4,835 bases of DNA from IMG/VR virus record IMGVR_UViG_2671180435_000006. The stretch is one strand, 5' to 3'. Numbering within the stretch: the stretch's first letter is position 1; every line of letters starts with the position of its first letter. The notes beneath the pieces are model-generated. The model ran no database searches. It was given only the letters and a program-made list of their open reading frames with translations, and was not told the origin of the DNA. Positions 1 through 4,835 of the stretch are shown here, piece after piece. The position numbers were made by a program, and so were the translations under genes. The DNA is from a virus. Its lineage: Duplodnaviria; Heunggongvirae; Uroviricota; Caudoviricetes.

Positions 1-32
1 ATACACTAAATCAGTAAGTTGGCAGCATCACC
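1..32 (-). mobile_element. IS1 terminus (left end, IRL), element body lies beyond the window's left edge
   Basis: Reverse complement of 1..32 is GGTGATGCTGCCAACTTACTGATTTAGTGTAT, which I recognise as the first 32 nt of IS1 including the 23-bp left inverted repeat. The element is therefore on the minus strand with its outer boundary at position 32. Confidence 0.9.
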
Positions 33-595: not shown

Positions 596-973
596 TCATT
601 TTTTCCCTCCAAATACGATGCCCTCTACGTCTTTGGAAGCTTTTTGTGATGACCACTCCTCTGAATCAGGTGATTTAATTAAAAATATTGTATCTCCATC
701 AAAAATCGTATTTGTTCCGTAAAAATTCACATTTGATAGATCACCACCAAAAACCCTCTGCCCACTCGAGGTAATTGCCTCACCTAATTTAGTAAAATTA
801 CCAGCAATAGATGATTTTCTTTTTCCACTTCTATTCAAAGTGGCTTTAATTACACCACCACCATCCTTAGAGTTAAATAATTGAATGTCCACTCCAGCAG
901 TTGGTTGTATATATTTTGAAAGCTCTTTCTTGAACTTGTTAATATATTTATCTTTGTTTTCTTTGTTGGTCAT
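596..973 (-). CDS. hypothetical protein, 125 aa, A+T-rich, no family recognised
   Basis: Uninterrupted 378-nt ORF in DNA visibly much more A+T-rich than the nin genes, where stop-free frames of this length are unlikely by chance. ATG at 971..973, TGA at 596..598. Lys-rich N-terminus, Gly/Ser/Asn-rich body, no signal peptide or TM segment. Shine-Dalgarno weak. Confidence 0.55.
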   Translation of the reverse strand: MTNKENKDKYINKFKKELSKYIQPTAGVDIQLFNSKDGGGVIKATLNRSGKRKSSIAGNFTKLGEAITSSGQRVFGGDLSNVNFYGTNTIFDGDTIFLIKSPDSEEWSSQKASKDVEGIVFGGKK

Positions 974-1237: not shown

Positions 1238-1693
1238 ATGACTCTGCCAGTAGACGGCATCAAACTCCATCGCGGTAACTTCGCGGCCATCGGCCAGCAG
1301 ATTCAGCCATTGCTGGATGCCGGGCAATGCTTACGCCTGCAGGTTAAGCCGTGGCGCGAGAAGCGCAGCCTGTCGCAGAACGCGCTCAGCCACATGTGGT
1401 ACACGGAGATCAGCGAATATCTCATCGCCCGCGGCAAGACCTTCGCTACGCCTGAGTGGGTCAAAGACGCGATGAAGCACACCTATCTCGGCTACGAAAG
1501 CAAAGACCGTGTAGATGTCGTGTCCGGCGAGGTCACCACCGTCCAATCCCTCCGCCATACGTCAGAGCTGGAAACCGGCGAGATGTACATCTTCCTGTGC
1601 AAAGTCGAAGCCTGGGCGATGAATATCGGCTGCCACCTGACAATTCCGCAGAGCTGTGAATACCAGCAGCTGCGCGATAAGCAGGAGGCGTAA
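1238..1693 (+). CDS. ybcN: nin-region protein of lambdoid prophage, YbcN-like (151 aa)
   Basis: ATG at 1238 preceded by GGGAGG at 1228..1233; TAA at 1691..1693. The 151-aa length and position immediately upstream of ninE-ybcO-rusA match the DLP12 gene order. I assign it by synteny and size; I do not recall the reference protein sequence well enough to confirm residue by residue. Confidence 0.8.
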   Translation: MTLPVDGIKLHRGNFAAIGQQIQPLLDAGQCLRLQVKPWREKRSLSQNALSHMWYTEISEYLIARGKTFATPEWVKDAMKHTYLGYESKDRVDVVSGEVTTVQSLRHTSELETGEMYIFLCKVEAWAMNIGCHLTIPQSCEYQQLRDKQEA

Positions 1694-1863
1694 TGGCTAC
1701 ACCGCTTATTCGTGTCATGAACGGGCACATCTACAGAGTATCAAATCGTCGTAAGCGTAAGCCTGAGCTGAAGCCATCCGAAATACCAACACTGCTCGGA
1801 TATACCGCTAGCCTGGTTGATAAAAAATGGTTGCGACTGGCAGCAAGGAGGAATCATGGCTGA
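1693..1863 (+). CDS. ninE: NinE family protein (56 aa)
   Basis: Manual translation from the ATG at 1693..1695 (overlapping the preceding TAA as TAATG) gives [56 protein letters not shown], ending at TGA 1861..1863. This matches my recollection of NinE. Too short for the supplied ORF track. Confidence 0.8.
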   Translation: MATPLIRVMNGHIYRVSNRRKRKPELKPSEIPTLLGYTASLVDKKWLRLAARRNHG

Positions 1864-2146
1864 TTTGAGAAAAGCAGCGCGTGGTCGGGAATGCCAGGTA
1901 AGAATCCCTGGCGTATGTAATGGCAATCCTGAAACGTCAGTACTGGCACATATCCGGCTGGCTGGATTGTGCGGTACCGGTATCAAACCGCCAGACCTGA
2001 TTGCCACCATTGCATGTTCTGCCTGTCACGACGAAATCGACCGCCGCACATATTTTGTCGATGCTGAGTATGCAAAAGAATGCGCGCTGGAAGGTATGGC
2101 GAGAACGCAGGTTATCTGGCTGAAAGAGGGGGTTATTAAGGCGTGA
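1856..2146 (+). CDS. ybcO: DLP12-type prophage protein YbcO, Cys-rich putative nuclease (96 aa)
   Basis: The track ORF 1817..2146 begins at a TTG. The ATG at 1856..1858 has GGAGG 6 nt upstream and yields [33 protein letters not shown]...[11 protein letters not shown]..., the 96-aa YbcO form as I recall it. Start overlaps the ninE stop (ATGGCTGA). Confidence 0.85.
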
Positions 2147-2505
2147 ATACCTACAGCATCACATTACCCTGGCCTCCGAGCAATAACCGCTATTACCGCC
2201 ATAATCGCGGGCGCACACACATCAGCGCAGAAGGGCAGGCATACCGCGATAACGTCACCCGAATCATTAAAAACGCAATGCTGGATATCGGCCTGGCTAT
2301 GCCAGTGAAAATCCGTATTGAGTGCCACATGCCGGATCGCCGTCGCCGTGACCTGGATAATCTGCAAAAAGCCGCTTTTGACGCACTCACCAAAGCAGGT
2401 TTCTGGCTGGATGATGCTCAGGTCGTTGATTACCGCGTTGTGAAGATGCCTGTTACCAAAGGTGGGAGGCTGGAACTGACCATCACCGAAATGGGGAATG
2501 AATGA
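2143..2505 (+). CDS. rusA: Holliday junction resolvase RusA (120 aa)
   Basis: GTG start at 2143..2145 overlapping the ybcO stop (GTGA), with a purine-rich AGAGGGGG upstream. Translation [26 protein letters not shown]... matches RusA. Acidic residues at positions 70, 72 and 91 (D-L-D ... D-D) are present, the catalytic positions as I recall them. Confidence 0.93.
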
Positions 2506-2642
2506 TGTTTGAGTTTTATATGGCAGAACTTCTTCGCCACCGCTGGGGGCATCTGCGCTTATATCGTTTCCCCGGTTCTGTTTTGACCGATTACCGAATA
2601 CTGAAGAATTACGCCAAAACCCTGACAGGAGCAGGAGTATGA
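2502..2642 (+). CDS. ylcG: small prophage protein YlcG-like (46 aa)
   Basis: ATG at 2502 overlapping the rusA stop (ATGA). Manual translation is [46 protein letters not shown], ending at TGA 2640..2642. Position after rusA and before Q matches DLP12. Below the ORF track length cutoff. Confidence 0.65.
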
Positions 2643-2655
2643 AGTCAGAGATAAC

Positions 2656-2681
2656 AATCAACTAATACTGTTTTGTTGATT
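2656..2681 (+). other. A+T-rich hairpin (AATCAAC / GTTGATT, 12-nt loop) followed by TTTGC, between ylcG and Q
   Basis: 7-bp inverted repeat seen directly. The stem is weak (no G:C core), so at best a weak attenuator. Confidence 0.2.
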
Positions 2682-2727
2682 TTTGCTTGTAATTGGCGTT
2701 CTGGTCTGATTTTTGTGGAGTAAGTTG

Positions 2728-3111
2728 ATGCGTGATATTCAGATGGTTCTTGAGCGTTGGGGAGCGTGGGCGGCTAATAATCATGAAGATGTGACCTGGT
2801 CGTCCATTGCCGCCGGTTTTAAGGGATTAATTACTTCAAAAGTAAAATCTCGCCCGCAATGTTGTGACGATGACGCGATGATTATTTGCGGGTGCATGGC
2901 CCGTCTGAAAAAGAACAACAGCGATTTGCACGATTTATTAGTAGATTATTATGTAGTCGGTATGACATTCATGTCACTGGCAGGTAAGCATTGCTGCTCT
3001 GATGGTTATATCGGGAAAAGGTTACAGAAGGCTGAGGGCATAATTGAAGGGATGTTAATGGCATTAGATATCCGGTTAGAGATGGATATCGTTGTTAATA
3101 ACTCTAATTAA
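2728..3111 (+). CDS. quuD: late-gene antiterminator Q (QuuD-like, 127 aa)
   Basis: ATG at 2728 with GGAG at 2717..2720. Translation [26 protein letters not shown]... with Cys clusters ([18 protein letters not shown]) consistent with a Q-family zinc-binding protein. Follows the nin genes as in lambdoid phages. The track start at 2713 is an upstream TTG that I reject. Confidence 0.9.
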
Positions 3112-3144
3112 TATGCCAATTGTTTACTAAAAATTATTAAAAAT

Positions 3145-3162
3145 GGGGCGTTGCAACGCCCC
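3145..3162 (-). terminator. intrinsic terminator for minus-strand transcription, probably the porin mRNA 3' end
   Basis: GGGGCGTTGCAACGCCCC is a perfect palindrome with a GC-rich stem. On the minus strand it is followed by AUUUUUAAUAAUUUUUAG. On the plus strand it is followed by CAAAAAUAAA, so it is not a plus-strand terminator. Confidence 0.5.
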
Positions 3163-3228
3163 CAAAAATAAAGGGTAATATATAACAGAAGGTTTATATA
3201 GTTAGAAGCAAGGTTGTGCTCCTAAAGG

Positions 3229-3284
3229 AAGTGGCTTGAGGGAGCCACTTATATGTTGGGGAGGCAAAGCCTCCCGCAACATAT
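3229..3284. other. two tandem hairpins immediately downstream of the porin stop codon
   Basis: Hairpin 1 at 3229..3250 (AAGTGGCT / AGCCACTT, 6-nt loop). Hairpin 2 at 3251..3284 (ATATGTTG + GGGAGGC, loop AAA, GCCTCCC + bulged G + CAACATAT), followed on the plus strand by CTTTTA. Either 3'-UTR stabilising structures of the porin mRNA or a weak plus-strand terminator. Confidence 0.35.
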
Positions 3285-3299
3285 CTTTTAGTAATCAAA

Positions 3300-4382
3300 T
3301 TAGAACTGGTAAACCATACCTACAGCAACGATATCATCGGTAGCAACGCCAGATGCTTTCGTGAAATCGCTCTTATCAATCAGGTTGATTTTGTAATCAA
3401 CAAAAGTGGACATATTTTTGTTGAAGTAATAGGTTGCACCTACATCAATATATTCAACCAGGTCCTGATCACCCCACGCACCCAAGTCTTTTCCTTTAGA
3501 TTGCAGGTAAGCAACGGACGGACGCAGACCGAAGTCGAACTGATATTGTGCAACTACTTCGAAGTTTTGTGCTTTGTTGGCAATATGGTTATTACCAAAA
3601 ACAGTCATGTTCTGGGTTTCAGAATAGGTGGTAGCCAGATAGATGTTGTTCGCATCATATTTCAGACCAGCTGCCCATACTTCAGCATTTTGACCAGATG
3701 CATTCAGGCTGTTGTTACCGTAGATAACCTGATTATTAGTGCGGTCAGATTTAGCATAGGTTGCACCTACACCGAATCCTTCATACTCATAAGTAGTGGA
3801 GAAACCGAAACCATCACCATTAGCTTCAGTTACGTCAGTGCGGTCATTTTTACCCTGATACTGAGCAGCAAAGTTCAGACCATCAACCAGACCAAAGAAG
3901 TCGTTGTTACGATAAGTTGCAACACCAGTGGTGCGACCAGTCATGAACACATCTGTTTGAGTCCAAGTGTCACCACCGAATTCTGGCAGGACGTCAGTCC
4001 ACGCACCGATGTCGTATGCTACACCGTAGTTACGGCCGTAATCGATGGAGCCGTAGTCACCGAATTTCAGGCCAGCGAAGGCAAGACGGGTTTTATCTTT
4101 GGAGGAACCTTGAGATTCAGCGCGGTTGCCTTTGAATTCATATTCCCACTGACCGAAACCAGTCAGTTGATCGTTGATTTGGGTTTCACCTTTGAAGCCA
4201 AGACGGGCATAAGTAGTATCACCATCATCTGCATCATTAGAGGAGAAGTAGTGCTTAGCATTAACTTTCCCGTACAGATCCAGCTTGTTACTGTCTTTAT
4301 TATAAATTTCAGCTGCCTGAGCAGACATCGCCATCAGTACTGATGCAGCTACAGCAGAAATTGCCACTGTTAATTTTTTCAT
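3300..4382 (-). CDS. nmpC: outer-membrane general porin, NmpC/OmpC/OmpD family (360 aa precursor), apparently intact
   Basis: Translation from the ATG at 4380..4382 gives signal peptide [23 protein letters not shown] followed by [17 protein letters not shown]..., with the aromatic-rich beta-barrel pattern and C-terminal ...VGMVYQF typical of enterobacterial porins. The track's longer form starting at 4442 adds 20 residues before the signal peptide and is rejected. Position after Q and opposite orientation match DLP12 nmpC as I recall it. Confidence 0.92.
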
Positions 4383-4502
4383 CGTGAGCCCTTTTTTTGA
4401 ACTATTATTAAAAAATGATGTCATTGCGCGATAAATATTCATCTAATCAATGTGATTATTTCAAGATGTAAGTTTTGGTTTCTCGTTTGATTTGTGAAGT
4501 AG

Positions 4503-4784
4503 NNNNNNNNNNNNNNNNNNNNNNNNNNNNNNNNNNNNNNNNNNNNNNNNNNNNNNNNNNNNNNNNNNNNNNNNNNNNNNNNNNNNNNNNNNNNNNNNNN
4601 NNNNNNNNNNNNNNNNNNNNNNNNNNNNNNNNNNNNNNNNNNNNNNNNNNNNNNNNNNNNNNNNNNNNNNNNNNNNNNNNNNNNNNNNNNNNNNNNNNNN
4701 NNNNNNNNNNNNNNNNNNNNNNNNNNNNNNNNNNNNNNNNNNNNNNNNNNNNNNNNNNNNNNNNNNNNNNNNNNNNNNNNNNNN
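4503..4784. other. N-masked block (282 nt), content unknowable
   Basis: Run of n characters seen directly. It covers most of the region upstream of the porin gene, where its promoter would be expected. Confidence 1.
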
Positions 4785-4804
4785 TTACGTACGTAAAAAA
4801 TTGG

Positions 4805-4835
4805 GGTAATGACTCCAACTTATTGATAGTGTTTT
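4805..4835 (-). mobile_element. IS1 terminus (right end, IRR), element body lies beyond the window's right edge
   Basis: 4805..4835 reads GGTAATGACTCCAACTTATTGATAGTGTTTT, the IS1 right terminal inverted repeat read from outside inward. The element is on the minus strand, the same orientation as the copy at 1..32. Confidence 0.9.

Follow-up and report, generated by a model that had tools for sequence, protein, structure and literature searches.

Porins of the NmpC/Lc type that are borne by lambdoid phages, and the slot between the gene Q and the lysis genes in which they are found, are already known, and this layout is an ordinary one. That nmpC is located in the qsr' prophage, and how the genes lc and nmpC are built, has been on record since references of 1985-86, as far as can be told from their citation in PMC3333887 and PMC11677980. 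The Lc porin of phage PA-2 and NmpC of the cryptic K-12 prophage DLP12 are 365 amino acids long each, when IS5 is removed from the latter, and share 98.9% identity with each other. The annotation of MG1655 gives nmpC as a pseudogene whose two fragments are separated by IS5B, and in the record of the 434B phage the IS5 insertion follows codon 346 of nmpC. This phage is viable with Q, the late promoter and the lysis region of DLP12 including nmpC::IS5 (PMC9119081). With regard to regulation, removal of the stretch from -199 to -1 upstream of nmpC abolished the promoter effect in K-12 (PMC11677980), and the PA-2 record contains a CRP site at -129 to -109 upstream of lc.

Here we describe an intact member of this porin family which is located on a stretch of 4835 bases (in the following the window, meaning this whole stretch at its full length), in which the region under the mask at 4503-4784 was judged only from near-identical relatives. 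An earlier reading of the letters (the first-pass annotation) had proposed that late transcription runs antisense through the porin gene and that prophage induction might thereby repress the porin. By comparing the locus with complete phages, with K-12 DLP12 and with the Stx phages we arrive at a different conclusion concerning the late transcript.

Organization of the locus

The window contains the following features, given with position, strand and description.

1..32, minus strand: left IS1 end, in the same orientation as the right-hand IS1; the first 160 nt of the window match L009, L014 and L017 exactly
161-398, no strand: masked stretch (N) of 238 positions
596-973, minus strand: ORF of 125 aa, function unknown (ORF list)
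1238-1693, plus strand: ybcN (family match)
1693-1863, plus strand: ninE (family match)
1856-2146, plus strand: ybcO (family match)
2143-2505, plus strand: rusA (family match)
2502-2642, plus strand: ylcG (family match)
2728..3111, plus strand: Q of the QuuD type, 127 aa (PF06530, E 3.5e-53; quuD in RefSeq)
3112-3299, no strand: gap between Q and the porin gene, 188 bp
3145..3162, minus strand: intrinsic terminator of the porin transcript, GGGGCGTTGCAACGCCCC followed by a T-run (terminator scans)
3229-3250 and 3251-3284, no strand: two adjacent strong hairpins just past the porin stop codon (folding)
3300..4382, minus strand: porin gene (NmpC/Lc/OmpD-type general porin), 360 aa, intact (Porin_1 and OmpC-subfamily matches)
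4314..4382, minus strand: part coding for the signal peptide, 23 aa, mature start AEIYNK (read from the sequence)
4383..4502, minus strand: visible 5' region of the porin gene, 120 bases, with the ribosome-binding site and the proximal promoter region
4503-4784, no strand: masked stretch (N) of 282 positions, part of the porin upstream region
4785..4804, plus strand: upstream half of pR', with the -35 TTTACG within TTTACGTACGTAAA and part of the spacer (alignments, pattern match)
4805..4835, minus strand: right IS1 end within the pR' spacer; the junction is common to L009, L014 and L017

The order ybcN, Q, nmpC in the window is the order found in K-12 DLP12, and the context is therefore DLP12-like. 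Q on the plus strand and the porin gene on the minus strand are convergent and 188 bp apart. Q itself is a distant relative of the solved Q21. Over its first approximately 333 nt Q (2728-3111) shares roughly 77% identity with the Stx-phage Q gene, which codes for 144 aa, and the 3' end diverges; this homology break coincides with the start of the porin cassette. As judged from the break, the comparison suggests that a 933W-like ancestor took up the porin cassette at its Q/pR' junction.

When the stretch from Q to the porin (2643-4502) was searched for at a match coverage of at least 80%, 2467 of 5426 complete E. coli genomes and 35 phage records turned out to contain it. In complete phages and prophages a spacer of 573-589 bp separates the porin gene from the genes of holin, endolysin and spanin (S, R and Rz). 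The placement of the porin gene, on the opposite strand and with Q and the lysis genes at its two sides, which had been proposed from the window, is thus borne out, as S, R and Rz come after the IS1 in the near-identical loci L009, L014 and L017 and directly after the porin gene and its spacer in the phage records: a QuuD-type Q stands on one side, the S21-type holin, endolysin and spanin genes stand on the other side and the porin is encoded on the opposite strand.

At the left side of the window the ORF at 596-973 and a partly masked ORF at about 157-599, both on the minus strand, make up an AT-rich cassette of two genes for proteins of 125 aa and 142 aa (phrog_18061 and phrog_16940, function unknown). 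This reverse-strand cassette is located between the replication genes and ybcN in intact relatives. Neither of the two ORFs gave a Pfam, NCBIfam or PADLOC match, and a scan of the whole window against Rfam with E values up to 1 gave no match.

The porin gene

According to the ORF list the porin ORF extends over 3300-4382 on the minus strand with an ATG at 4382, codes for 360 aa and contains neither a frameshift nor an internal stop. An in-frame ATG further upstream at 4442 gives a version of 380 aa; a cluster member of this length is named 'outer membrane porin protein LC', and some sources call the longer porin ORF. For the CDS of identical length RefSeq and the phage records also use the start at 4382, and we prefer it to 4442 because the signal-peptide annotation of PA-2 supports the version of 360 aa. 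Residues 1-98 of the porin, signal peptide included, do not differ from those of PA-2 Lc, for which a signal peptide of 23 aa is given in the record.

The protein matches the Pfam family PF00267 (Porin_1) over its full length, with residues 29-360 aligned to positions 1-337 of the 337 profile positions (E 3.1e-153). It passes the cut-off of the NCBIfam OmpC-subfamily model (518 bits, cut-off 484) and scores below the NCBIfam equivalog cut-offs for PhoE and OmpF. The alignments to the solved chains of OmpC, OmpK36, OmpK37, PhoE and OmpF are untruncated and reach from residue 24 to the C-terminal Phe (E 1e-120 to 1e-137). Read from the translation, the protein carries PEFGGD, the motif of the constriction loop, and ends with YQF; a C-terminal Phe is typical of outer-membrane proteins. 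Thus, the first-pass annotation was right in describing a full-length ORF with signal peptide and C-terminal Phe, with Porin_1 covered end to end and the solved porins aligned up to this last residue. The gap-poor, full-length alignment to solved OmpC and OmpK37 suggests that the protein forms trimers of a 16-stranded beta-barrel which would conduct small solutes.

The alignment to NmpC and Lc, which had been named as a check of integrity, revealed neither truncation nor frameshift: the porin of the window shares 90.1% protein identity over 365 aligned columns with PA-2 Lc and likewise with K-12 NmpC without IS5. Residues 1-180 are almost identical to Lc and NmpC, and the differences after residue 180 are confined to three short segments and two small deletions. 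These variable segments are probably surface loops.

PhiR34_1 and PhiR68_2, two phage records in which the porin is annotated as OmpD, encode the very same protein (100% identity), and on the DNA level the region from Q to the porin is 99.0% identical to both records. The LF82 prophage Perceval shows 92.5% DNA identity in this region. The exact porin protein is found on at least 1000 contigs, with source names such as 'porin OmpD [Shigella sonnei]' and 'outer membrane porin protein LC', and contigs of Shigella sonnei also carry partial copies of the porin. At 3300-4382 the window holds an intact allele of the porin gene of lambdoid phages that is known as nmpC in DLP12, as lc in PA-2 and as 'ompD/ompC' in automatic annotation. 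That DLP12 nmpC of K-12 is inactivated by IS5, as the earlier reading had stated, agrees with the MG1655 annotation of two pseudogene fragments split by IS5B. The contrast drawn there between the intact gene and the K-12 copy is hence factually correct, but as something unusual it does not hold, given the at least 1000 contigs with the exact protein.

Transcription of the porin gene

The gap between Q and the porin gene contains three hairpins in total. One of them is the minus-strand terminator at 3145..3162 and the other two are the adjacent hairpins at 3229-3284, whose folding gave -50.6 kcal/mol (z -7.2) for the minus strand and -47.4 kcal/mol (z -4.5) for the plus strand. The second hairpin (3251-3284) is followed on the plus strand by CTTTTA and could stop read-through from Q.

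On the minus strand of the porin 5' region TTGAAA, a spacer of 18 nt and GAATAT can be made out by eye as a candidate promoter. A consensus promoter scan left the porin promoter unflagged both in the window and in PhiR34_1, and in PhiR34_1 the scan left pR' unflagged as well. Because the scan misses both pR' and the porin promoter of PhiR34_1, we regard the two as non-consensus promoters. The porin gene would behave as a moron, an autonomous passenger gene: a minus-strand terminator of its own was found in the gap, and experiments on the homologous 199-bp region of K-12 speak for a putative promoter of its own (PMC11677980). In an uninduced culture of LF82, NmpC of prophage Perceval is listed at 10-fold above the local background, among the prophage genes expressed by the lysogen (PMC9928086).

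Position and direction of the late promoter

When the porin-to-S spacer of PhiR34_1 was used as query, hundreds of records of Stx phages were matched at the extreme end of their Q gene, and the matches fall on the features 'putative pR'' and 'tR'' annotated in 933W. Seen from Q, the pR' homologue is located on the other side of the porin gene: the segment is found some 370-450 bp upstream of the porin ATG, and in the DLP12-type phages the promoter is ~380 bp upstream of this ATG and ~185 bp upstream of S. It is directed toward S, the holin gene; this position rests on homology to the promoter of the Stx phages, whose Q differs from Q of the window in the C-terminal part. In the alignments of PhiR34_1, K-12 DLP12 and 933W the -35 TTTACG is found within a palindrome and is separated by a 16-nt spacer from the -10 TATGCT (TATCAT in 933W), and across the aligned phages the -10 follows the pattern TAT(G/C)(C/A)T. 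The initial transcribed sequence TAAGAGTGGTTAC is nearly invariant over the first 25-30 nt and is followed by a hairpin with a T-run; in PhiR34_1 this hairpin terminator of the pR' transcript is at L001 6169-6190.

For the Stx phages of strain Sakai the PR' start was mapped by dRNA-seq, together with an RNase E cut GU/AUU at +173 and a 3' end at +258 (PMC7547250). In the current record of Sakai Sp5 the start corresponds to L019 1846, which is 7 nt past TATCAT, the cut GU/AUU is found at 2018/2019 (GTATT at 2017-2021) and the terminator at ~2098-2103. This match between the coordinates of the paper and of the record assumes an offset of 142 nt between the genome versions, with which three independent landmarks fit. 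Since the start, the +173 and the +258 landmarks all fit, the mapped Sakai PR' is the pR'-homologous promoter just past the Q stop codon. A position of pR' inside the Q gene, derived from the 258-nt distance between PR' and tR' (PMC7547250), was also considered and was rejected, as the Sakai landmarks fit the promoter just past the Q stop.

In the 188 bp between Q and the porin gene neither a promoter-like match on the plus strand nor a copy of the pR' palindrome or of the pR' start region was found. A weak promoter-like match on the plus strand lies inside Q at 2925-2952, and three such sites were found compared to 5.2 in shuffles. [quoted passage not shown]

Thus, the claim that Q-dependent late transcription proceeds antisense through the porin gene is not supported: the sole pR' homologue is located beyond the porin gene and fires away from it, and none was found between Q and the porin gene. 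As pR' lies beyond the porin gene and is directed at the holin, the late transcript would start past the porin cassette and the antisense reading falls. The distance between Q and pR' is no obstacle, since Q acts in trans. Judged from this arrangement, Q-dependent transcription should not cross the porin gene. Cargo of the late operon would be expected downstream of pR' and tR'; here the pR' homologue lies past the porin gene and points toward S.

The -35 of pR' is embedded in a perfect palindrome, which reads TTTACGTACGTAAA in the window (4784-4797) as well as in DLP12; 933W and Sakai have TTTACGATCGTAAA. The palindrome is found at L001 6112-6125, at L019 1812-1825 and near 1200-1220 in L021 and L022, and pR' of mEp460_4F5 and SfII has a different palindromic core, GCGTACGC. 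Because the symmetry is retained while the sequence of the palindrome changes, this suggests a candidate binding site for a dimer, possibly for the QuuD-type Q family.

In PA-2 (J02580, L004) the distal 'CRP site' upstream of lc, at 1067-1087, corresponds to the first ~25 transcribed bases of pR'. The conservation of this site may reflect the function of the late promoter and not a regulation of the porin, because phages that lack a porin also have this stretch in nearly invariant form. A literature search on lysogenic conversion by PA-2 returned nothing relevant.

IS1 elements and the state of the prophage

The terminal bases at 4805..4835 we take to be the IS1 inverted repeat. The relatives L009, L014 and L017 show that the right IS1 is a simple insertion: it is inserted after ...TTACGTACGTAAAAAATTGG and is followed by the 8-bp repeat AAAATTGG, by TATGCT, by the hairpin and by S-R-Rz. 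Hence, pR' is split by IS1 between its -35 and its -10. Beyond the right junction a called gene with IS1 transposase domains is present in L009 and L017. The agreement with L009 is close, with one mismatch in 4104 nt and with both end segments identical. The 32 nt of the left IS1 end also match the far end of the IS1 next to pR' in L009, L014 and L017. Among the complete E. coli genomes no match to the junction of IS1 and pR' was found. Exact-pattern scans of the collection of species-representative genomes gave no match.

The early region of the intact relatives L010-L013 (repressor, O and P) is replaced in L009, L014 and L017 by DNA with IS1 or IS21-type elements and with genes carrying domains of LacY-type permeases and of glycoside-hydrolase family 32. 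Read from its ends and its relatives, the window is a decayed prophage remnant bounded by IS1 ends, probably in Shigella sonnei. For this copy the proposed coupling of prophage induction to porin repression loses its basis, as IS1 splits pR' and the early region is gone in the near-identical genomes.

The IS1 termini at 1-32 and 4805-4835 have the same orientation, so that the window looks like a contig bounded by repeats. Both N-runs are 32 nt longer than their counterparts in L009 (238 versus 206 nt and 282 versus 250 nt). In the relatives (L009 reversed, ~12100-13000) the far end of IS1 places TTGGCA exactly 17 nt from the -10 TATGCT; this -35 matches in 5 of 6 positions, the native TTTACG in 4 of 6. 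With such an IS1 hybrid promoter the short pR' transcript may be made independently of the native upstream sequences.

Reverse-strand cargo in other phages

Unrelated ORFs on the minus strand are found in PhiR55_1 (148 aa, L020 690-1136), mEp460_4F5 (308 aa, L021 210-1136) and SfII (340 aa, L022 121-1143). All three are located directly upstream of the same pR' module, that of PhiR55_1 between Q and pR', and none of them gave a Pfam match. From these layouts the slot before pR' seems to be reused for reverse-strand cargo. The more general statement that cargo of the reverse strand is always found between Q and pR' was tried and fails for Lambda_2E9, which carries a lipocalin gene and has another promoter-terminator-like segment right after Q.

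Discussion

Both the first-pass annotation and our comparison place an intact NmpC-type porin gene between Q and the lysis genes, and they differ concerning the course of late transcription. We suggest that the porin gene is a self-contained transcription unit which would have been inserted between Q and pR' and which would comprise its own upstream promoter region, a Sec signal peptide and its own terminators in the gap that is common to Q. In this arrangement the porin would be made from the repressed prophage and would provide the outer membrane of the host with a general diffusion channel and with a new surface structure. Taken together, we assign a probability of about 0.82 to the reading that the porin cassette is self-contained, is located between Q and pR' and outside the late transcript, is not subject to late antisense transcription and is effectively a host gene here.

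A layout that fits the original proposal, with pR' directly after Q and with a Q-modified polymerase that runs antisense through the porin gene and represses the porin upon induction, would follow the example of lambda and the Stx phages, in which pR' immediately follows Q (PMC7547250). The porin gene is indeed located between Q and S on the opposite strand, and Lambda_2E9, whose Q has a different C-terminus, has a short promoter-terminator-like segment right after Q and then the lipocalin gene on the reverse strand. Nevertheless, we consider this layout highly improbable for the locus described here, as the pR' homologue is found beyond the porin gene and is directed away from it, as the gap between Q and the porin contains no plus-strand promoter match and no pR' motif and as in the window IS1 additionally splits pR'. 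Antisense transcription upon induction could also originate from the early rightward operon, if polymerases antiterminated by an N-type protein pass Q and the hairpins and proceed into the porin gene. In intact phages only such early read-through past Q could run antisense, and it would meet the hairpins at 3229-3284 first. The convergent orientation of Q and the porin gene over a distance of 188 bp favours early read-through, the hairpin zone at 3229-3284 has the look of a barrier to ordinary read-through from either side, and in lambda the N-modified polymerase ignores intrinsic terminators. If true, early read-through would provide intact phages with a milder and earlier coupling of induction to porin repression. 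However, it is inapplicable to the remnant in the window, since the early region is absent in the closest genomes, and overall we hold this possibility to be unlikely, though it deserves to be kept in mind.

It might also be that the porin ORF is intact and nevertheless silent in its host, either as a quiescent gene or by a regulation that is disturbed by IS1 or within the masked stretch. The title of a reference cited in PMC3333887 calls nmpC a quiescent porin gene in E. coli B, and in the window IS1 is located 422 bp upstream of the porin ATG, with 282 of the upstream positions masked. On the other hand, nothing out of the ordinary is found in the closest genomes at the positions of the mask, IS1 is well removed from the 199 bp that were defined as the promoter region in K-12, the nmpC promoter of K-12 is active and LF82 expresses the Perceval copy, so that we regard a silent porin gene as rather doubtful.

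A more far-reaching idea is that IS1 removed the native -35 together with the palindrome TTTACGTACGTAAA as a candidate Q site and might thereby have freed the lysis cassette from Q, that the porin has been domesticated and that the gap between Q and pR' is a recurrent, shielded site for reverse-strand cargo. At present we look upon this combination as speculation with little likelihood.

The layout of Q and porin is present in about half of the complete E. coli genomes and has been described since the 1980s, and beyond correct annotation it matters little. The useful correction concerns the porin gene, which precedes the late promoter and is best regarded as a gene for the host surface that is expressed in the lysogen, not as one that is silenced by late transcription. 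Possible effects of the porin concern the permeability of the outer membrane and receptors for phages or colicins. In the context fragmented by IS1 any phenotype of this porin copy would be a trait of the host and not a trait of phage induction. More generally, lambda-like prophages of E. coli and Shigella carry the NmpC/Lc porin as an independent passenger gene.

Comparison with known systems

The closest described systems are Lc of PA-2 (GenBank J02580) and NmpC of DLP12 (qsr'). Their signal peptide is identical to that of the window porin, their N-terminal half is nearly identical, and they occupy the same slot in the same orientation between Q and the S21-type lysis genes, with the same neighbours from the nin region (ybcN, ninE, ybcO, rusA, ylcG and quuD). 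On the contrary, the window porin has 360 aa compared to 365 aa, the prophage in the window is cut down by IS1 and, unlike K-12 NmpC, the porin gene of the window is free of an IS5 insertion. PhiR34_1, PhiR68_2 and Perceval are complete phage genomes with an uninterrupted pR' and with the lysis genes, whereas pR' of the window is split by IS1 and the locus is bounded by IS1.

With the chromosomal porins OmpC, OmpF, PhoE, OmpK36, OmpK37 and Salmonella OmpD the window porin shares the Pfam family, the motif PEFGGD and the C-terminal Phe; in contrast to these general porins it is borne by a prophage, away from the ompC and ompF loci. The stx genes of the Stx phages are likewise non-essential cargo between Q and the lysis genes, in phages with related Q genes and related pR' sequences. 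However, stx follows pR' and tR' on the late strand, where the Q-modified polymerase transcribes it, whereas the porin gene precedes pR', is encoded on the other strand and is not part of the late transcript.
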